Positions 240-64,000 of a stretch of DNA of 64,000 nt are shown here, one piece after another. Both the position numbers and the translations under genes were made by a program. This stretch comes from Carcharhinus amblyrhynchos. Taxonomy: Eukaryota. Numbering within the stretch: the stretch's first letter is position 1; the number at the start of each line of letters is the position of its first letter. The notes under the pieces were generated by a model. That model saw nothing but the letters and a program-made list of their open reading frames with translations, was not told the origin of the DNA and ran no database searches. The stretch is from NCBI GenBank assembly GCA_965287045.1, contig OZ336872.1, forward strand, positions 41,168,001 to 41,232,000. Direction: 5' to 3'.

Positions 240-3200
240 GATGGATAAACAAATCTTGAAAATCAAGATACTACTGAAAGTGAGAGATGCGCAAAGTAAA
301 CACTTTGGGCCTATCTGACAAGGATCAGAAGGATCCTGCCAAGCTGTGGAACATTCTGGAGGATCAGCTTGGTGTAAAGACTAAATTTTAAATGCATTAT
401 TTGGAGCTGATGGCTTACAGAAAACATCTCCAAGAAGCAATTGATCAATTCATCATCAGATACTTTAAGGGTAAGTGGTGTGATTTCTTGAAAGCCAAGC
501 TATCTGAATGAATCGTGGAGCAGGTTATAGCTTGAACACCAATTGAAGCTTTCCAAAAAGATCTTTTGCAGTGAAAGAAAGCTCATGATAGTGACATAAA
601 AGATGGCAAAACATTGTAGCTGGATAATAATATCTGGAAGCATTAGGTGCAACTGTCAGTATCAATGTGATGGCAAGGATGCAGAAAGCTTGCAAGTCAT
701 ATGGGAAATGCAGTTCGCTGCACCCACTGTGAAGCTGCCCTGCATTCCAAGATCTTTAAGTTAAGTGGCGTAAAAGGACATAGGGCTCATCTATTGCTGG
801 AAATTATATTCCAGAAGTAAGATGCAACCAAACAAAAAGTGCATACAGCCTGCTTGTCACAACAATGGAGAGATCCACTTAAGCCCTAGCACATACGCAA
901 GATTAGTGGCAAGTCGGAGCAGGGTGAAGAAGTAGATCAGAAATATCAACTGGAAAATGAACAGGCTTTTACACATTGATTTTGTTCACAAGTTGTGAAC
1001 GTTCATAAACAGTTGAAACCTTTGCTACTATCAACATCATATGCCCAATAGCATCAAACGGTTCATAAACAGAATTGACACAGGTGCAAATGCAAATATC
1101 TTACCAGTTGGAATCATGAAGAATATGTATATGGATCATTGGAACCTATGATTTACAAACTAATTGCATGCAATGAGTTACTCATTCACTGCATTGGTAC
1201 ACTAACACTGAAATGCAGCTATGGCAAGTCTGCATGGAAACCACTAGTATTCTATCCAGTGGACATGAGCGGACCAGCTGTAGCTAGGTTATCAACATGT
1301 TTAGAATTCAACATTATGACCATGCGTAAGATTGCCAAGTTACCAATCACAGCAGAAGACGCTGAGAAGAATCTCATTGAATCAATCCATGACCTACAGC
1401 AGATGTACCCAGACACATTCAATGCCATAGGGAACTTCAGAGGTGTGATTATGTTACACCTCAGAAGTGCAGTCCATAAGTCAACCCTTCTCGAAAGTAT
1501 AGTTTGCAGGTACAGAAAGAACTAAAGAGTGAACTGAATGACATGGCGCATTTGGCATTATATTTTGTGTGCACCAACACACCGACTGATGCAGTTACAG
1601 ATGTGTGCACTGAGAAAAGATGGCACAGTGTGGGCGTGACACAAAATGCCAAAATCTCTCTCCAAGAAGATGCCCACATAAGATTCTAGCATTGGAAGGA
1701 TTGAATTCCAAAGTCACAAGAGCAAAGTTTTTGATATGTCAGTTCATTTGGCAGAGTCATCTTAAGAAATCCTTAGTTCCAGGGCACCATTTCGAAAATA
1801 CTGCTTCCCAGAGATTACCTGTTAGTTGATCCATCAGTCAGGATCTGTTCCAGCAGCATATAGGCAGAATTACAGAAAACGTTATTCAATGGTATTATGT
1901 TGATGGGCAAAACCAAAGAAGAGTATGTTGGTAAGCCAGCTACAGCTGGTCTGCTCATGACCATTGGATAGAATACTTGTGGTTTCCATGCAGACTTGCC
2001 ATAGCTGCATTTCAGTGCTAATATACCAATGTGGTGAATGAGTATCTCATTGTATGCAATTAGTTTGTTAGTCATAGATTCCAGTGATCCAAAGTCTGCA
2101 CTCACTGGCAGCAGCTTGTCATGAAGGAGTTGTCTTCAGCAGCAAGAAATGCCAGGTGAATGTGGGTCAGAATGACTTTTTTTTAAATCTGTTCAAGCTC
2201 CAGGAATTGTCCTAAGCCAGGCATTTATGAAAATGTACAAAATGTACCTATTCCCCAGGTCAAAGAGGACTTCTTCACACCTATTACATCAATAAGGATT
2301 CTCCATATATATGACAGAAGGACCATCAACATATGTTCAAGTCACTTAAACTGGCATTGCCTGGTGCTACATGTTTTCTACAGTATTATGAGCCAAGCAA
2401 AAAGATTGTATTGGAGGCCATCACATCTCAAGAAGAGTTAGGAGTGTGAACAGTACAAGGTGGCAAAAGATTATCACAAGCATAATCCAATTATTTGAAA
2501 ATAGGAGTGTGAGATGCTCTGGTATTCGGTATTAAAATATTCCATATATACCTATTTGGTGAACGATTCAGTGTGGAAACAAAACCACAAACCATTAGAA
2601 AAGATTTGGGGCAAACCATTAACAATTGTACCACCCAAACTACAATGATCCCTGACTAAAAATACAGGACTATGATTTCAAAGTCCTGTACAAACTTGTT
2701 TAACATAATGGTTACTTAAGACACACTGAGCAGATTACCCAATTTGAAAAAAAACTGCAGACATCTCACTAAAACAGAAAATGTTGGATACGTTCATTAG
2801 ATCTGGCAACATCTGTGAAGAGAGAAACATAGTTAGCATTTTGAGTTCATTGACTCTTTTACAGAATAGTCTTACTGAGTGAATGATTTGCATAGTTAAG
2901 TCTTTAACGATGAAATGCAGGGGAACAAAACAAAATCTCTGTATTGCCATGTTACATTTAGACATCATCAGCAGAAATTGTGTTTGGAAAGTAAGCAGGG
3001 ACAATCTTTCCTAGTCATTACCTGTCCAATTTCTCAGAAGGACTGGAGAAACTTCTTGAGAAGCAAGGGAGAATGAAGACAGTGAATGACTGACTTGCAG
3101 TTGGAGAACTGCCTAGTCTGTATGTAGGACGAAAGGTTCAAGCCATACGTCCTACCCAGGAAACTTGGATATTGGCAGAAGTATCTAAAGCCCAGATCCA

Positions 3201-3300
3201 ATGAAGTCAAAACATTGGATGAAGTGACATTAATATGGAACAGAAGTCAGCTAAGAGAATTATAAAACTGGATGAAGCCTTGCAGTCCAACTATGTCTAA
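240..3300 (+). mobile_element. Degenerate Ty3/Gypsy LTR retrotransposon internal region (gag-pol remnants)
   Basis: Aspartic protease motif IDTGANANILP from 1074; RT-like 'PF.KYCF.RLP' and 'SQDLFQQ' at ~1785-1860; RNase H-like 'VFGIKIFHIYLFGERFSVET.HKPL' at ~2520-2600 and 'DTLSRLP' at ~2720-2740; many stops and frameshifts. Confidence 0.85.
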
Positions 3301-3319
3301 AACACTTCCAAAGATGGAC

Positions 3320-3497
3320 TCAGAGTGGAATTGTGTAGTGGAGGTGGATAAGTATTTTAAAGATCACGGAAGAGAGGGCTATCGGGAAATGGCACAAAAA
3401 AGGAGTTGGGCCTGTCACAGATCAGCCATGATTATATTGAATGGTGGGCCAGGCTTGAAGGGCCTAGTAGCATATTCTCATTTCTATTTCTTGTGTT
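3320..3497 (+). mobile_element. CR1 LINE 3' end fragment inserted in the Gypsy element
   Basis: CR1 3' UTR motif 'agatcagccatgat...attgaatggtgggccaggcttgaagggcc...ctatttcttgtgtt', shared with other CR1 ends in the window (27664 region, 35860). Confidence 0.8.
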
Positions 3498-4137
3498 TAC
3501 ACCTGCCCTGCCATTGTAACTTGTTTAGTTAATTTAGTTTATTTGCTTTCTTAATTAGAATAATTTCTATGAATGCTACAATTTGCTTAGTTTATTAAGT
3601 GTTAGTACAATGGATAACTAAACATTATGTTTCTTAACGACAAAGATATGTGTTTTAATTGTTTATTTTTATTTCAGTTTAAGTTTCAGTACGTTTTAAT
3701 TTGTAGATCTACCTGGAGTCCTTTTATCCTAAGTTGACTACACACTGCCCTTTAATACTAAGCACTAACCGACCATCAACTTGCTAGTTTCCTGTGAGTC
3801 ACAGGTTTTTTTTACTGCCAGCTCACTAGCTGAAATGATGTATTCCTCAGCTCCCGACCGTCTCTTGTAGATCTGCTCAGACTCCTAGGAAGACCACCGT
3901 GAAAACAATCAGTATCCTGACAATATACCTACAAATCAAGAACATTCATGTGAAAGGCCAAATCTCAGGAAGTTCATGCTATTGTGAGATCTGGGTAGAT
4001 TATTAAATCACCTTTACATTAGGGGGGTTCTATAATTAATTTCTATTCAAGAGTTTAACAGTTTAGTTTTTTTCGAACTGTCTTTATGTATTTTCACTCT
4101 TAATGTATTTGTAATGTTATCTTGGAAGAAAAATGGA

Positions 4138-4420
4138 TGTTGTAATATATATTAATTGTGTATATACTAATGAGTCTGTAGCCAGGATGTAAACTGTGTG
4201 ACTGGCAGACATTGTTTAGAAAGGTTTCAATTTAGGTTGCAGCATCCTTTGTGAAGGAATTGCAGTTATACTTCACTGTTAATAACAGTTGTTGAACCTT
4301 TATAGTTAATCAGTTTGCTGAATATCCCTGTACTGTATCTTTAAATAAACTGAACATACGTTTTGTTGCCAGTCCTTTGGTAAGTTTGTATTCAGCCCAC
4401 ATAGAAATTAATCAAGGACA
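4138..4420 (+). mobile_element. Probable 3' LTR of the Gypsy element
   Basis: Purine tract 'ggaagaaaaatgga' immediately before TGTTGT at 4138; internal AATAAA; plausible ...GGACA end at 4420. Confidence 0.55.
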
Positions 4421-6254
4421 ATAAATAATAAAAATGACTGATGGATGTTAGTAGTGAAATTGGTCGATGACAGCAGTGTAATGGACTCATAATGACTTAT
4501 CATTCCCAATCTTCTTTCCACTGAAGTCCGTAGAGCAATAGTTCAAACTCTTTGGTGACTTGCTTCCTAATCTCACTTGTCATTTTTACTCGGTTTGGAA
4601 TTAAAAATCGTAACAATATTTTCCAAGTCAGTGGTGGATAAAAATTGCCACACTGAAATATTGTTTCCTGATTTGCTTCAACCTTATTTTGCACAACTGG
4701 CTTTGACCAATCTCACTCTCTTTGTTTTGAGTTTTAGCAGTGTTACAATTGTTAAATATAGCCAATAATTTTTGACATTTGTTGGTCAGGCTTTTCACTT
4801 TACTGCACAGGCACAATTGCTGGATCCCTGCCTCAACTCTTCTAATGTGGCAGTCAGTGATCTCTTCCCTAAATCTGAAATACCTGTCACTGTCCTCTTG
4901 CAAAGAGATTGCTGCTGATACCATGACCAATTCGTTGCCTGTTGCTCCCAAATCTGGACGATATCAACCACATTTCCCAATCGCTGTACACAGGTGGATC
5001 AATTCTACAAATGTATGCAATCATTTGGAAGCACACACGCTATGGGTACACATATGACTAAATAATTATATCATGTTCATAAAATTATTTCTAGCTGGCG
5101 TCTTTTATGAATCAGGCAAATCCCACGTCTACACCACTTTTCCCAGGAGCTATCATGAGAGATTTATAAAGATAAAGCCTTGACAGTTGAAGGCATCCTG
5201 ACAAGATTCTTCTCACACAAATGGGGAGAGGACTGAGGAGGAACGGATATAAGAAACAGAGCAAAAGATGTTTTGTTTAAACTATCATTCTACCTGGAGC
5301 TATGAATCTAACACCATTGTCCACTGTTGTGCTTGAAACTAATTTACATTTACTTCCCTAATCCATCAGCATTGAACTTCAGATTGAATAAAAGGAAGAA
5401 AGTTGGTCTAAAGGAAGCCCACCAATGTAATTAATAGTATCCCAGGGTATTGCTCAGAAATAAAATATGCACATTCTTTTACATCTTTTGTAGTTTTTAT
5501 TTTCCATTTGATTGCCTTTTGTCCGATTATTTTTGCATCTTTATTTTGCTTGAGTTTTGTGCAAAAAAGCATTATTTTGAGCTAGATAATAAGATATTCC
5601 TTAGCAAATAATAATTCCGTAGTCTGTAGGAGTCATTGATTCCAAGTACAACAATCACCACAAAAATTAGAGTATTTAATGTAATGCACTAAAAACTTCA
5701 ATTTACCCTCCTTTTTTATTCTTTTAAATGTAGACGTCTGTTCTTTTACAGAAAGCAGACAAATATTAATGTCAGAATTTCTAAACCCTATTGTTAAAAC
5801 ATATTCAGGCTGCAGAATGTATTTTGTCAAAAACAATATCGCTTGGCTCTCCCAAAAATGGTGACTACATCACTTGCTGTTAGGAATTTACCATTTAATG
5901 CGCAACATCTCGATATATCATGGCATGATCTGAGGATTGTAACATGATCCCTTATTATGTGCATGCTATAATCTTGCATGTAATTCTCTTATCCTATAGG
6001 AAGCAACATGTACAAGATAAACACCCTAGACCGATATGATCATTTGTAAACTGGTAAATTCTACACACAAGACTGAAAAGATTAGTGTTTTCAGTGAAAT
6101 TTAGTCCATTTCATATTTCCCTTGCAACCTGGAAAAATAGCAGGTTATGCCATTTGGACTTAATTCAATTTCTATTCAGTTCTCTAGTCATCTCTACGTA
6201 TGACCAATTAAAACTTCAAACACTTCTTCTTTCTTTCTAACTTTTTCCCAATTT

Positions 6255-6370
6255 TCTTTCTTTCTTTCATGGAATGTGGGCATCACTGGCTAGGCCAGTA
6301 TTTGTCATCCATTTCCAATTGCCCTTCAAACCATTGCAGAGGATAGTTAAGAATCAGCCACATTGCTGTG
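6255..6370 (-). mobile_element. SINE/LINE 3' tail fragment
   Basis: 'ggaatgtgggcatcactggctaggccagtatttgtcatccatttccaattgcccttc' is the reverse complement of the LINE 3' end at ~13140-13240; the same motif occurs at 8030 and 23410. Confidence 0.65.
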
Positions 6371-6374
6371 CAGA

Positions 6375-8745
6375 AAGAACAATTTGGCCATGCAGCCAGA
6401 ATTGAAAGAGCTAGGTAAGAAATTATCAAGCGAGACTTAAACAGTAGTTATCTCCAAATTACTCTCAGTACAGTGCGCTGGTGAGTATAGAAATAGAAGG
6501 ATTAACAGGTGAATTTGTAGCTGGAAAGATGGTACAAGAGGGAGGACTTTAGATTCTTGGGACATGGGAGTGGCTCACAAGGTGATAAGACCTGTACGGG
6601 CTCGATTGGTTATACTTAAGTAGAGCTGGTACATTTTGCTTGTGCAATTAGGGAGGCTTTACGTTAACTTGGCAGGGATGCAGGAACCAAGAGCAAAGAT
6701 CAAAGAGGAATACCAATGTGAAAAAACTGGAAGAGATAGCTAGCACAAGAATAAGGAACAGTTAATTAATAGGTGGGGTAAAAGTAAGAAAGCAAATGTA
6801 AATCAGTGTTATTGTACATGTATTTAAATGCACAGAGTGTGGTAAACATTGGTGAGTTACAGGCACATGTGGAAATATAATGTTGTGGCTATAAGAGACA
6901 TAGCTGATGAGGGCAGAACTGGGTATTAAATATTCTTGGATGCAAGATGTTCAGGAAAGACAGGAAATGAGAAGTGGGATGGCTTGTGGTATTGATCAAG
7001 AAGAGCATTGCAGTGCAGAGGAGTTGAGGACAGAATCCATTTGGCTAGAGGTAAGGAATAAAAAAATGTAATTACATTACTTGGCATTGTCTCCAGGCCA
7101 TCAACTAGGGGGAAGGGTGTAGAATAACAAATTTGCTAGGAACTAGAGAAGTGCAAAAATTATAGGGTAGCTATAAACAGGGTTTCGAATTATACAAATA
7201 TATAATAGTATGTAGTGTGGAAAAGAGTGAGGGGCAAGAAGTTCCTAACGTGTTCAGGAAAATTTTCTACAACAGTATGTTTTCAGTCCAATGATAAAGG
7301 GGGCACTGTTAGCCCTTGTTCATGGGAATGAGGTGGGCCAAGTGGATCAAGTATCAATGGGAATACGTTCAAGGAACAGTGATCATTGCTTCATAAAGTT
7401 TAGGCTAACTTTGGAAAAGGACAAAGAGCAACCCAAAAAATAATTAACTGGGGGGAAGCTAACTTCAATGGGATAAAAATGACTCTGGGATGGATAAATT
7501 GGACCCAAAGGTCGATAGGAAAAATGGTTCCTAAACAATTTTCAAAGAAGTGTATTTCAAGATATATTTCCTCAAAGTAGAACGCTAGGATAAACAAAGC
7601 CAGAACACCCTGGATGCCAAAAGCAATAGAAATTGAGATAACTAAGGAAGTGCTTATGACATATGTCAGCCAGAAAATACAGTTGAAAATCAGGTACAAA
7701 AGTAAGCCCAGTAATCAGGGGCCAGTCAATTTAGATTAGGCGGTGGCAAAACTTCTGGAAACAATAATTCAGGACAAATGCAGGTTAACCAATGAAAGTT
7801 AACATGGATTTCCTAACTTGCTGGATTTCCTTAGAGGTAACAGGCTAGATGAGGGAAATGGGGTTGATGTGGTAAACGAAAGACATTTGATAAAGTGGCA
7901 TGCAACAGTTTTTGTGAGCCAAGGAATAAAAGGGACAGTGGCAAAATTGATACAAAATTGGCTGAGCGACATGGAGGATGGTTTGCAGTGGGGTTCCCAG
8001 GAATAGGACCCTTGTTTTTCCTGATTCCATTATTTCATGGGATATGGACCAGCATTTATTGCCCATCCCTAATTGCCCTTGAACTTAAGCTAGACCATTT
8101 CAGAGGGCTTTTCTTTTTTAAAAGAGTCAACTTCATTGGAGTCACACTTAGGCCAAACCATGTAAGAATGGCAGATTCCTTTTCCTAAAGGACATGGTTA
8201 TCATTAGACTTTTAATTCCAGATTTTTATTGAATTCAATTTCACCATACTCCATGGATCCCCAGAGTATGACCTGGGTTTCCGGAGTCCTGATCTATTGA
8301 CAATACCGCCATGCCACTGCCTTCCCAATGACCTTGACCTTGGTGAACAGGGCACAAATTCAAGATTTGCAGATTGTATGAAACTTGGAAGCATTGTGAA
8401 CTGTGAGGAAGATAATAAAACTTCAAAAGGATATTGACAGGTTGATGGAATTAGTGGACAGATGGTGAATAATGTACAGATTTGCAGTATTTGATAAAAG
8501 ATGTAAAAACAATTTGAGGAAAAGCTTTTTCATGCAGTGAGTGGTTAAGTTCTGGAATGCACTGCCTGAGAGTAGGGGGGCACAGGCTCAATTGAAGCAT
8601 CAAAGGGGAATTGGTCTGTTACCTGAAGAGGACAAATACAGGGTTATAGGGAAAAGGCAGGGGAATGGCATTAATTGAAATGCTCATTCTGAGAGACAGT
8701 GCAGACATGATGGGCTGAATGGCTTCTTTTTGTGCATAACAGGTC
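6375..8745 (+). mobile_element. Degenerate near-full-length CR1 LINE (ORF1 esterase, APE endonuclease, RT, 3' UTR) with internal deletions
   Basis: SGNH-esterase-like remnants (VVIS..., EYRNRRI, FRFLGH, DLY...L) at ~6440-6630; endonuclease start 'MYLNAQSVVN' at ~6818; RT remnants (HGF, QWGSQ/GP) at 7800-8020; 3' end 'FFMQ.VV..WNALP' and CR1 UTR at 8520-8745. Confidence 0.85.
8030..8326 (-). mobile_element. tRNA-derived SINE inserted in the CR1
   Basis: On the minus strand it starts with a tRNA-like head 'gggaaggcagtggcatggcggtattgtca' and ends in the LINE-derived tail 'aagggcaattagggatgggcaataaatgctgg'; it interrupts the CR1 RT. Confidence 0.7.
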
Positions 8746-52911: not shown

Positions 52912-54234
52912 GTTATCTCTGGTGATATGGATCATCAAAACTTAGAGTTTATAAATGGCTAAAATTTGAATTTGGATCTCTGCAATATGAAATTCAGTAA
53001 GACTGTACTCGTGGAATGGAACCAAAATAGACAGCAACATGAATCACTGCTTTATAACACTGATTATTGGACAGCACCATTGTGTTAATCTGAATTGCCT
53101 CGTATAGTATCCCTCAGCCAGATAGTCACCTGTTTCAGTTCATATTGCAGACGATACATTGGGCATTCTTGTCGAAGGTTTGAGCAAAGGATTATTTGAT
53201 GTACTAATTCACGAATAAGTAGCCTTTTTTCATCTACTCAACTCATTAACAGTATTGTGAAGGGGGCATCTATGCGCACACAAAGCCAGAGGAAGAATAG
53301 AATAAATAAGCTCTTTAAGAGTGGAATTGAACTGTGAATGAACTGATGTTATCAATCTTTTCTTTATTTGTCAGTAGTTAACCTTTTGTTCTTTTAGTAC
53401 AGTTTGTGTTCTTTATATTTCTGTGGTTCTTCTATGGTTTCGTTTCTATGTGAAACTGTTCACTGTCCATTAGTGGAGGTACGTAGGGCATCATGTTCAG
53501 TCTGGTGTGGAGTTCTGAGGAATGATCAACATCTGTAAAGTGAACTTCTCTATTCTGTTGACATATACTGCCTACCCTATTGTGTCCAGAATTTTCTGTT
53601 CAGCCTAGATTTTCAACATTTGCATTTTTTTTCCCCCATGTAGAATAATTATTCTTTAAAGCTTAGATTTTCAATTTTAGATCCACAAACCCTTAAGGAT
53701 CTACACGAGGATCTGAGGAAGTCAACCAGGTAATTGGTAAAACAAATTGTGCATAGCAAGCATAGATTCTTGAGAATTTTGTTTTCTATGCCTTTTGACT
53801 TTCCAGCTTATTATTTCTGTTGTTATGTAGTTAAGAAATAAACAAATACTGCAACAACAGTTATTTTTCCTTGGATTGCTGGCACAAAGTCTCACCACTC
53901 AGGGTGAGGAATCTCACATACAGAAAGCTCCTGAGAATGGCCAAGCAGTATGACATCTACATCAAGGACTGTTAACTTGACTTTAAGTTGGAATATTATT
54001 CTGTATATACTTTAATAATTAACATGTACGGTAGATAACTATATGAAAATTGATCAGGATCCAAGACATAAAGTGTTGATAAGTATGGCACATTTAAATC
54101 ATGAGAGAAATGGAAAGCAGTGAAGGTGAATGGGGATGGGGGAGACATGCGGAAAACCTGTTGGAGAGAAGAGCAGTACTTCTTCAGGGTGGGCATTCCT
54201 GGAAGAGAAGTGGCAATGAGTTAAACACTGGATG

Positions 54235-54367
54235 AAGGCAAATTACTGCAGATGCTGGAATCTGAAGACAAAAGAGAAAATGTTGGGAAATCTCAGCAGG
54301 TCTGGCAGCATTTGTAAGGAGAGAAAAGAGCTGACATTTTGAGTCCAGATGACTCTTTGTCAAAACT
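54235..54367 (-). mobile_element. Penelope-derived short repeat
   Basis: Reverse complement of the Penelope terminus at 49255-49385 ('cagatgctgccagacctgctgagatttccca...cagattccagcatctgcagtaatttg'). Confidence 0.8.
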
Positions 54368-54458
54368 GCATATAAAATTATGTTTGGAAACCTTCAAAGT
54401 CAACAGCCACATTATTGACTCCATCATATCTCATTCAACTGAAGTACCCCCTTATTAA

Positions 54459-54690
54459 GTTGCTTCTCGGCCTTTTGGTTAAGATCCTGCATCGGTCAGA
54501 TCAAGCTCAAGAAGTGAAGCAATGCCTTATCTTGTCGGTGTGAATCTTGTTTGTCTCTCCTGTGGGGACCATGAATAGGATTAAATTAAAATTTGAATTT
54601 GGGGCAGGTAAAGAATTGATTCTGATCTGCCCATTCCACTCTGAACATTGCCTTTGAAACTTTAAGAATGAAGTAAAAATTATTTTAAAA
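54459..54690 (+). pseudogene. Divergent U2 snRNA-derived retroposed element
   Basis: 5' 'gttgcttctcggccttttggttaagatc' versus U2 'atcgcttctcggccttttggctaagatc'; collinear U2-like blocks downstream; A-rich tail; flanking repeats ccccttattaagt (54448-54460) and ctcctcattaagt (54693-54705). Confidence 0.75.
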
Positions 54691-55029
54691 ATCTCCTCAT
54701 TAAGTCACTGATATTTTACAATAACAAAGTCAACAGCCAAAGGTAATGTTGGAGGGTGGAGACTATTGTGTTTGGAGAATTTATAGGCCACCAGCATTCA
54801 ACCCAGCAACCTGTTCTCATCTTGGCAGATGTACTAAAATGTTAAATTCTGATCTCTTTGACAGTGAATTACCTATAATGACAAAGGCTATCTCACCTAA
54901 TTTTTTAAAATAATATGGGCAGACTTTACCAGAATCTTATAGTTCCACGTATCTAGTTGGATTGAGATGCATTAGCATTGCACTGATACCGAAACTTTCC
55001 AGCAACCTTTTAAATATGAGAGGCAATAA

Positions 55030-55250
55030 AACATAGAATCCCTACAGTGCAGAAGGAGGCCATTGGCCCTTTGAGTCTACACCAACTCTCTGAAAGAGTA
55101 TCTTACCGAGGCCCACCCCTCCACCCTATCCCTGTAACCCTGCACATTTAGCATGGCTAATCCATCTAACCTACATATCTTTGAACACTAAAAGGCAATT
55201 TAGCATGGCTAATCCACCTCACTTGTGCATCTCCTGAAACCGGAGCAGCC
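55030..55250 (-). mobile_element. HE1-type SINE 3' portion
   Basis: 'catagaatccctacagtgcagaaggaggccatt...ggcaatttagcatggctaatccacct'. Confidence 0.85.
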
Positions 55251-62100: not shown

Positions 62101-62328
62101 GTGCAAACCCACCTTGAAAATCCAACCAAATACCACATTCAGCAAGCCCAAAGGCAGCAGGTAAAGCAGTATCTGTCAACCACCTTGGGCAACAAGTTGA
62201 CAAACCAAGCCTTAAGCATGCCCTGTCCTAACCAACCAAGTGATCATGCCATGCCTCCAGGAACTGGAAGCAGTGCACCTAACAGCCCAATGGCCATGCT
62301 AAACATCAGCTCAAACTGTGAAAAAGAG
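62101..62328 (+). CDS. MITF: MITF (microphthalmia-associated transcription factor) coding exon 2
   Basis: [76 protein letters not shown]; acceptor TAG|GTG, donor GAG|GTAATC; 228 nt, phase 0/0; includes the SAPNSP phospho-motif (human S69/S73). Confidence 0.97.
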
Positions 62329-62899
62329 GTAATCGTAAAATTATTTTGTATGGATAATATTGGGTTAGAAGTTTAAAAAGTAAATAATTTCACCAAGTAT
62401 GATCAACTTAAACATGGAGCTCAGTTGTTTCTTTTCAATTCAGGTTTTAAAATCTTCATGCATTTTGTGCCTTTTTTGCAGTTTGATAAAATGGTTGTGA
62501 CTTTTATGTTAATTAATTGTATTTTGTCTCTTTGAACTACAAAGATGTGAAATTTGTGAAAGGTTAAAATCAAATGTGTGCACTTGTGGAGACACAAAGG
62601 TGAAAATGTCTGTTATGGCACAACATACCTCAATATATTTCAGAGAAAATAGCGTAGTAAGTGCCACCAAATAGATCAGTCAACATACAGAAAAGGAACA
62701 GCATTTCTCTTTTATTTTAACTATCAAAAAATAATGATTGAAGCTGTCTCAGGATTTTAGGCATCAATAAACATTGTGTTCCTTATGACTGTGTTATCCG
62801 CGTTGCAAATCTCAGTGTTACATATGATATATCTATTAATATACCAGGACTGGTACAGTTGGCTGTCTGAAGGTGTTGCCTTATATTTTATTTATTTCA

Positions 62900-63334: not shown

Positions 63335-64000
63335 TTTTGATGGGTTTAAAAATGACTAACCCCAGGCCTGGATGACTTGCATCCCAGGCTGCTGTGGGAG
63401 GCAACACAGAGAATTACAGAGTTTGGATGCAAATTTTCAATTCCTGTCTAGCCACACGGTAAGTATCAAAGTACTAGAGGACAGCTAATGTAGTTCCACT
63501 TTTCAAGGAGGGTAGTAGAGATGAACAAGGGAAATACAGACTGGTGACTGTCTTGGCAGTGCTCGGGAAACTATTGGAGAAAATTCTGAAGGAGAAAATT
63601 AATCTGTACTTGGAAAGGCATTGGTTAAGTAGGGATAGTCAGCGTGGTTTTGTCAGAGGCAGGTCTTGCCTGTCAAATTTGATGGAATGTTTTGAAAAAG
63701 TGATGAAGTGTGTGGATGAGCAAAGTGCAGTTGTGGTTTATGTGGATTTTGGCAAGGTCCCAAATGAAAGACTGATTGAGGAGGTTGAAGCACATGGAAT
63801 TCAAGGTAACTTGATGAGAGGGACCTGAAACTGCTTTAGTAATGGACACAAAGCATGATGGTATAAAGGTGTTTGAGTGACTGAAGGCCAGTATTCATTG
63901 GCATACCACAAGATTCACTGCTAGGTCCCTTATTGTTTGGTACATACGTACATGATATAAATGATGATGTTGGGGGAATGTTGGTGGTAAATAGTGAAGA
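63335..64000 (+). mobile_element. Degenerate CR1 RT fragment (runs off the window)
   Basis: 'PGLDDLHPRLLWE', 'ANVVPLFKEG', 'SQRGFVRGRSCLSNL', 'VYVDFGK', 'GIPQDSLLGPLLF'. Confidence 0.88.

Follow-up and report, generated by a model that had tools for sequence, protein, structure and literature searches.

A probable U2 snRNA-derived SINE lineage in a shark genome, with a stem loop predicted to be locked and a likely tie to a Keno-like Tx1 LINE

The window, a 64,000-nt stretch of the Carcharhinus amblyrhynchos genome, contains a MITF coding exon at 62101-62331 on the plus strand. The best matches to this exon are 97% to three carpet-shark proteins, 96% to basking shark and 90% to chimaera. A U2-like element (Table) is found on the same strand 7.4 kb upstream of the exon, probably within a long 5' intron of MITF. 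It is flanked by two repeats that are highly abundant in sharks as judged by depth, one at 54205-54368 and the other, which we take to resemble an HE1-type SINE, at 55025-55250. A reverse-transcriptase fragment is found at 63478-63825 (+). An exact 15-nt direct repeat (54395-54409 and 54725-54739) encloses the element, its target-site duplication (TSD) and about 70 nt of flank. A larger mobile unit bounded by this repeat was rejected because the 5' flank is single copy, and the repeat is perhaps an older small insertion or duplication.

Table. Parts of the U2-derived element and positions in the window
Feature	Position	Strand	Remarks
Whole family-A element	54459..54692	+	about 234-235 nt, non-coding; ~85% to consensus
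TSD, 5' copy	54448..54460	+	11/13 vs 54693-54705; final 2 nt shared with element start
TSD, 3' copy	54693..54705	+	
U2 head, U2 1-28 including stem I	54459..54486	+	25/28 vs the genome's own U2
Three 12-nt tandem units from U2 22-33	54480-91, 54496-507, 54508-19	+	
4-nt insertion within the tandem-unit region (54480..54519)	54492-95	+	present in window copy
Family hairpin module	54499..54548	+	from module alignment; outer helix (unit 2 + remodelled stem IIa region) and inner stem; decayed in window copy
U2 23-47 equivalent (branchpoint-interacting stem loop, BSL)	54509..54533	+	
GUAGUA position	54519-54524	+	reads GCAATG
Stem IIb remnant	54553..54569	+	collinear with U2 67-84
AT-rich region with 18-nt family insertion	54572..54600	+	U-run of the U2 Sm site deleted in window copy
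Stem III remnant and stem IV 5' side	54601..54655	+	U2 similarity stops near U2 160-169
Non-U2 3' end with A/T tail	54656..54692	+	common to all copies

The element was aligned with the genome's own U2 (L031). A first-pass annotation had recognized a U2-like 5' end of 28 nt followed by about 40 nt of unrelated sequence replacing the GUAGUA region. The 5' end was confirmed, and U2 similarity was found to continue past base 28, as none of 1000 shuffles reached the score of 54487-54682 against U2 29-end. The supposedly unrelated sequence consists of U2 22-33 repeated twice more in tandem (12 nt each), together with a 4-nt insertion. GUAGUA was mutated rather than replaced and is still in register within a gap-free U2 23-47. 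Farther downstream, stems IIb and III are kept as described and stem IIa is not. The sequence read as an Sm site is not that of U2, whose U-run falls in a 7-nt gap relative to the family consensus. Rfam U2 matches 54459-54681 with 35.1 bits (E 7.6e-5), below the gathering cut-off of 46 bits. Other Rfam matches near the element are at chance level, and none within the 64-kb window reaches the gathering score.

The flanking duplication was upheld, and the tail described as A-rich is present but A/T-rich. The TSD of the window copy scores 7.5, while 1.1% of 189 flank swaps reach 7. A contig from organism F spans 54547-55020 with 19 differences to the window, so the insertion at 54459 is older than that split. 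Three of these differences, one inferred from the total, lie in 136 nt of element and 16 in 338 nt of flank, which is not a significant difference (p 0.30). The window copy is 85.5% identical to the consensus of the family to which it belongs, here called family A. It is a dead, old and decayed copy, ordinary in itself, and the window holds no further copy of family A or of its sister family B.

To estimate the size of family A, the genome was searched with the window copy and with the copy nearest the consensus. The former gave 1,952 candidates, and all 40 scored matches cover most of the element at 75-80% identity. The latter gave 4,798 candidates, with best non-self matches of 85-89%. A 23-mer from the tail occurs exactly 238 times compared with 0 for a control. 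Since 10/53 similarity-picked copies contain this 23-mer, family A has at least about 1,300 copies, and per-base identities of 0.86-0.90 give 2,700-7,600. Of 89 loci examined 7 were duplicates, and 72 of the remaining 82 are near full length, with a mean identity to the consensus of 90.4% (range 84.9-95.2%). Among tail-picked copies 22/29 begin at base 1-17 and 7/29 are truncated at the 5' end. TSDs with a score of at least 8 were found in 7/63 copies compared with 1.1% of 189 swapped flanks; 54/63 copies have no TSD at score 7. The flanks are mostly unrelated to one another. Subfamilies were sought and rejected, as the variable columns are not linked.

The consensus is collinear with U2 from base 1 to about 165 apart from two insertions. 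The first, of 24 nt, is two additional copies of U2 22-33, and the third 12-nt unit leads gap-free into U2 23-47. The Sm site lacks its A, and a 35-nt end with an A/T tail stands in place of the 3' arm of stem IV. Runs of T4 and T5 occur inside the element, and the A and B boxes at tRNA spacing that together with freedom from internal T runs mark canonical pol III SINEs were not found, spacing being judged by eye against consensus motifs. A functional U2 gene would have GUAGUA, stem IIa, an Sm site, a complete stem IV and the U2 3' end, and these are not kept; the flanks of the 72 copies match neither U2 promoter region. Family A is not an snRNA gene: a U2 promoter and the U2 3' end are missing, and no Sm site is in place.

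Both insertions, the substitutions and the non-U2 3' end are common to all 72 near-full copies. The same kind of argument was made for SINEU-3 by Kojima, as set out in part of that paper (PMC4494074), and it makes a collection of independently formed U2 processed pseudogenes or of template-switch chimeras, with no master, extremely unlikely, even though a LINE in this genome does acquire extra partial U2 heads (L241, L246, L252). To judge from the alignments, family A is almost certainly a dispersed family of retroposed U2-derived copies. With its U2-derived 5' part, short length (<500 bp), lack of coding capacity, many copies, A tail and TSDs, it classifies as a SINEU-type element. The element is neither single copy nor U2-like over 28 nt alone, and the first-pass proposal of an independent shark U2-derived SINE family with a distinct source RNA is supported by many dispersed full-length copies with the same rearrangements.

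Family B is a younger sister family. It is about 316 nt long and consists of U2 1-40, a 70-nt piece, a second U2 head and two hairpin modules, followed by a IIb remnant and a tail with AATAAA. The hairpin module is shared with family A and is duplicated in B. The best 30 copies have a mean identity to the consensus of 97.8%, or 98.7% with a younger query, and reach 99%. A family-B 24-mer occurs 362 times compared with 0 for the control, and family-B words are present in sequence runs of six organisms with shares of 0.23-0.57. TSDs of 9-21 bp (score at least 8) were found in 14/30 copies compared with 2.2% of swapped flanks. Of the 30 young copies 28 begin at U2 1-5 with no common promoter upstream. 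One B copy (L155 1497-1668) passes the Rfam U2 gathering score with 50.1 bits. Young B copies will therefore be annotated as U2 genes and inflate U2 counts in shark annotations.

GUAGUA is intact in B, and the 70-nt piece is predicted to mask it by base pairing. In an old form of B (L016) the piece is U4-derived, as 0/2000 shuffles reach the likeness; in three later forms the likeness is not significant (379-858 of 2000 shuffles). A fold-back copy of U2 11-39 was considered as the origin of this masking arm, with 7/11 differences keeping pairing (p 0.02-0.24), and was rejected in favor of the U4 origin.

The pairing of the BSL was compared between U2 and family A. The consensus forms 11/11 pairs, U2 9/11 and the window copy 7/11, and the predicted energy is -10.0 kcal/mol for the consensus and -0.8 kcal/mol for U2. 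Seven stem changes separate the two. A30G and U43A close both mismatches, C28G/G42U is a double change, and A29G, A38G and U39C keep or strengthen pairs. GUAGUA became GCAAUG in the loop of this perfected stem. Random placement of seven changes yields 11/11 pairs in 296-949 of 400,000 simulations. In the predicted fold of consensus positions 28-92 (-28.0 kcal/mol) the remodelled stem IIa region is the partner of the second 12-nt unit; z is -4.5, against -1.0 for the window copy. One BSL pair is broken by an A in 21/72 copies.

Across the families 143 modules were found, and 16 of three types (A, B1 and B2) were picked by hand for covariation. The inner stems differ by double changes at 6/11 pairs, and the outer helix is fixed. 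Cell-level measures beat 500/500 shuffles. Pair-level measures were reached in 94 and 183 of 500 shuffles and are not significant, suggesting that covariation events are few.

Two of the seven BSL stem changes have been made in human U2. According to the portion of Stevers (2026; PMC13019295) that was consulted, BSL mutants M1 and M2 are A30G and U43A, respectively. M2 and the double mutant M1/2 spliced the reporter little or not at all and had low RNA levels, while M1 alone had little effect. Both substitutions are in the family-A consensus, which adds five further stem changes and a new loop, and family A is a retroposon rather than an engineered snRNA. The part of the source RNA that reads introns is mutated and, by folding, predicted to be locked in a hairpin.

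The first-pass annotation had also offered a variant U2, altered in its specificity for the branch point, as the source of a retrocopy. Retrocopies of such a functional gene would account for the kept U2 5' end, stems IIb and III, for the clustering of 5' ends at U2 +1, and for the smaller share of differences in the element than in the flank of the organism F ortholog, though this last contrast falls short of significance as noted above. We consider this origin very unlikely. The closest of the 72 copies is only 95.2% identical to the consensus and the best non-self match is 85-89%. Upstream flanks match neither type of U2 promoter, and no source locus with a promoter was found. The copies have lost stem IIa, the A of the Sm site and the 3' arm of stem IV together with the U2 3' end. 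The hairpin that contains the changed bases is, by prediction, so stable that it would not open, and the same stabilization stops splicing by human U2 in the mutants described in that portion of PMC13019295.

It is unlikely, but less so, that the SINE is as described with a neutral hairpin, made by tandem duplication and inverted-repeat correction, and with a promoter in the flank or an internal pol III promoter instead of that of a U2 gene. The GAUC motif of U2 is self-complementary, so duplications fold by themselves, and independent covariation events are few. Conversely, the new pairs are often G-U (three in the BSL), which DNA template switching would not make, and the module duplicated in B kept its shape with changed inner stems. 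We regard retention of the family-A hairpin by selection at the RNA level as fairly likely. As to the promoter, no family-A master was found behind a U2 promoter, and flank promoters have been proposed for SINEU by Kojima in the part of PMC4494074 used here. The T4 and T5 runs argue against pol III transcription, and the copies have no common 5' extension. Transcription of family A from a borrowed U2 promoter is the option we favor by a modest margin.

The U2 arrays were surveyed. An intact 5.4-kb LINE lies inside a U2 gene (L045 784-6178) with U2 38-57 duplicated. Its ORF1 is ZCCHC3-like with a zinc knuckle, ORF2 encodes an endonuclease and a reverse transcriptase, and its relatives are annotated as Tx1. 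The insertion point is U2 base 38, fixed in U2 genes, and dozens of inserts occur in U2 arrays. The LINE is Keno-like by the definition given in the section of PMC4640811 that we used (AP endonuclease, reverse transcriptase and a fixed U2 site). Poly(A) joined to U2 38-53 occurs 67 times. The 58 such junctions in examined arrays all follow LINE tails, and among 13 other loci 11 follow the LINE, one is bare poly(A) and one is family B (L315).

Thirty matches to the LINE 5' end were classified. Seven lack the 5' end, 8 are in arrays and 15 are dispersed. Among the dispersed matches with complete 5' ends 9/15 carry a U2 head in unrelated flanks, and the head carried out of the arrays is U2 1-57. 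These heads indicate that the LINE was copied from RNA starting at U2 +1. The other 6/15 (L253, L256, L260, L261, L263 and L264) share a non-U2 upstream sequence and form a related family with another head.

Several further features of the arrays were observed. The canonical U2 gene lies in 10.5-kb units on C45. A second array (C98, C334 and C734; L042-L045) is built of 407-bp units with a variant U2 that is 88% identical to the canonical one, and 80 of the U2 heads read G at base 38. At L132 a LINE copy ends directly before what resembles the start of histone H4. B copies in tandem or directly behind LINE tails were seen at L117, L134, L123, L158, L227, L228 and L234, as if one cut site had been reused by both.

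A B copy was found at the U2 site itself. The order at L310 is LINE, U2 38-end, spacer, U2 1-37, full B, tail, U2 38-45 and LINE. The spacer is 83% identical to the C98 array spacer, and the B copy is 93% identical to the B consensus. This arrangement places a SINE in the Keno site, with a U2 promoter region ahead of it. Its 93% identity and single locus indicate that it is not today's master. At L315 the order is B, tail and U2 38-112. At L215 a TSD encloses U2 18-37 and B, which would be the product expected of an L310-like locus, the alternative being a template jump. Going by these junctions, B shares the LINE's target.

No family-A copy was found at the U2 site or behind a U2 promoter, and U2 38 follows 0/52 A tails. 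None of 612 exact U2 heads (357 + 255) in about 800 kb of arrays leads into an A or B body. These arrays comprise about 410 kb and 388 kb on C98, C334, C734, C45, C1098 and C1246; for the 410-kb portion, the BLAST survey covered 80 of 360 matches and the classification of heads is complete. By eye the A tail seemed to derive from the LINE 3' end, but this was rejected, as 604/5000 shuffles reached the likeness; for the B tail 159/5000 did. The LINE is young, with copies at 98-99%, and A copies are about 90% identical to their consensus, suggesting that an older relative drove family A. No such relative was found. Family A was probably driven by Tx1, and homology with B and the sizes of its TSDs point indirectly to a link with the Keno site.

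These results suggest that family A is a SINEU-type shark family with a locked-BSL source RNA, for which transcription from a U2 promoter and copying by a Keno-like Tx1 LINE are likely. We give this reading a probability of about 0.8. Its steps may be outlined as follows. The shared structure of the copies shows that a near-complete U2 (1 to ~165) acquired a new 3' end, an AT-rich insertion and two 12-nt tandem duplications; the whole was then dispersed as one unit, with TSDs and with truncation at the 5' end. The source RNA perfected its BSL, and the duplicated units came to pair with the old stem IIa region; these changes are seen in the sequence, and functionally the locked BSL would block action as U2 in splicing and may be a stable handle. 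Because the LINE cuts U2 genes at base 38, elements that land there would end up behind an external snRNA promoter. Their transcription would start at U2 +1 and supply a U2 head, and they would be carried to random sites. The LINE and B display this step, and family A would have followed it. The window copy is dead sequence, likely in a MITF intron.

A broader reading is put forward tentatively, at a little under even odds. Sharks may harbor an independent, recently active snRNA-derived retroposon lineage that parasitizes the U2 gene and lands at the Keno site for its external pol II promoter, and selection may repeatedly switch off its splicing-active 5' end. The perfected BSL with a changed loop in A and the U4-derived masking arm in B would be two such switches, with the same mutations in A as inactivate human U2. 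If true, snRNA-derived SINEs would have arisen a second time, far from crocodilians, and the branchpoint stem loop of U2 would have undergone a natural experiment. What makes the case worthwhile is the perfected BSL, together with those loci at which the Keno site links the elements to the U2 promoter.

The shark lineage of U2-derived SINEs is real and probably undescribed. No shark snRNA-derived SINE was found in the literature searched, a search outside which lie Repbase, Dfam and most subscription papers, and there SINEU is in print only for crocodilians. Nor does one appear in the passages of PMC5381603, PMC4758252, PMC5499810 and PMC10620051 that were consulted. In the sections of Kojima (2015; PMC4494074) on which this comparison rests, no SINEU is reported outside crocodilians, and how promoterless SINEU are transcribed is left open. 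The LINE that carries U2 1-57 and the SINE copies at the same base are pieces of a testable answer in this genome.

The Keno and Utopia elements described in parts of PMC4640811 resemble the shark LINE in its single fixed 3' junction, and its 20-bp duplication is as in reptile Utopia. It differs in also having many dispersed copies off target, at 98-99% identity. Serial snRNA heads are found in SINEU-1 and SINEU-2 and in U-headed Tx1-Mar (PMC4494074, in part), as they are in B with its U2 head, U4-derived piece and second U2 head, and Tx1-Mar is, like the shark LINE, a Tx1 LINE with U2 heads. In the shark, however, the origin of the LINE head can be followed to the insertion target in the U2 arrays, where a SINE copy also lies behind a spacer, and B has a U4 piece and twin hairpins.

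The closest known kind for family A is the crocodilian SINEU, nearest SINEU-3, as far as the portions of PMC4494074 consulted describe it. Both derive from U2 alone, with about 32 nt of the 5' end and a middle part of U2, and both have a non-U2 3' end of about 40 nt, an A tail and internal T runs. Both are about 89-90% identical to their consensus, with 1,600 copies of SINEU-3 and a few thousand of family A, and a Keno-related Tx1 is the likely driver of each. Crocodilian SINEU prefer Mariner-N4 as a target; in family A, whose flanks are mostly unrelated to each other, no preference for Mariner was seen. Apart from its shark host, family A is set apart by structure, since SINEU-3 deletes about 50 nt after base 32, while family A duplicates this region and remodels it into a long hairpin.
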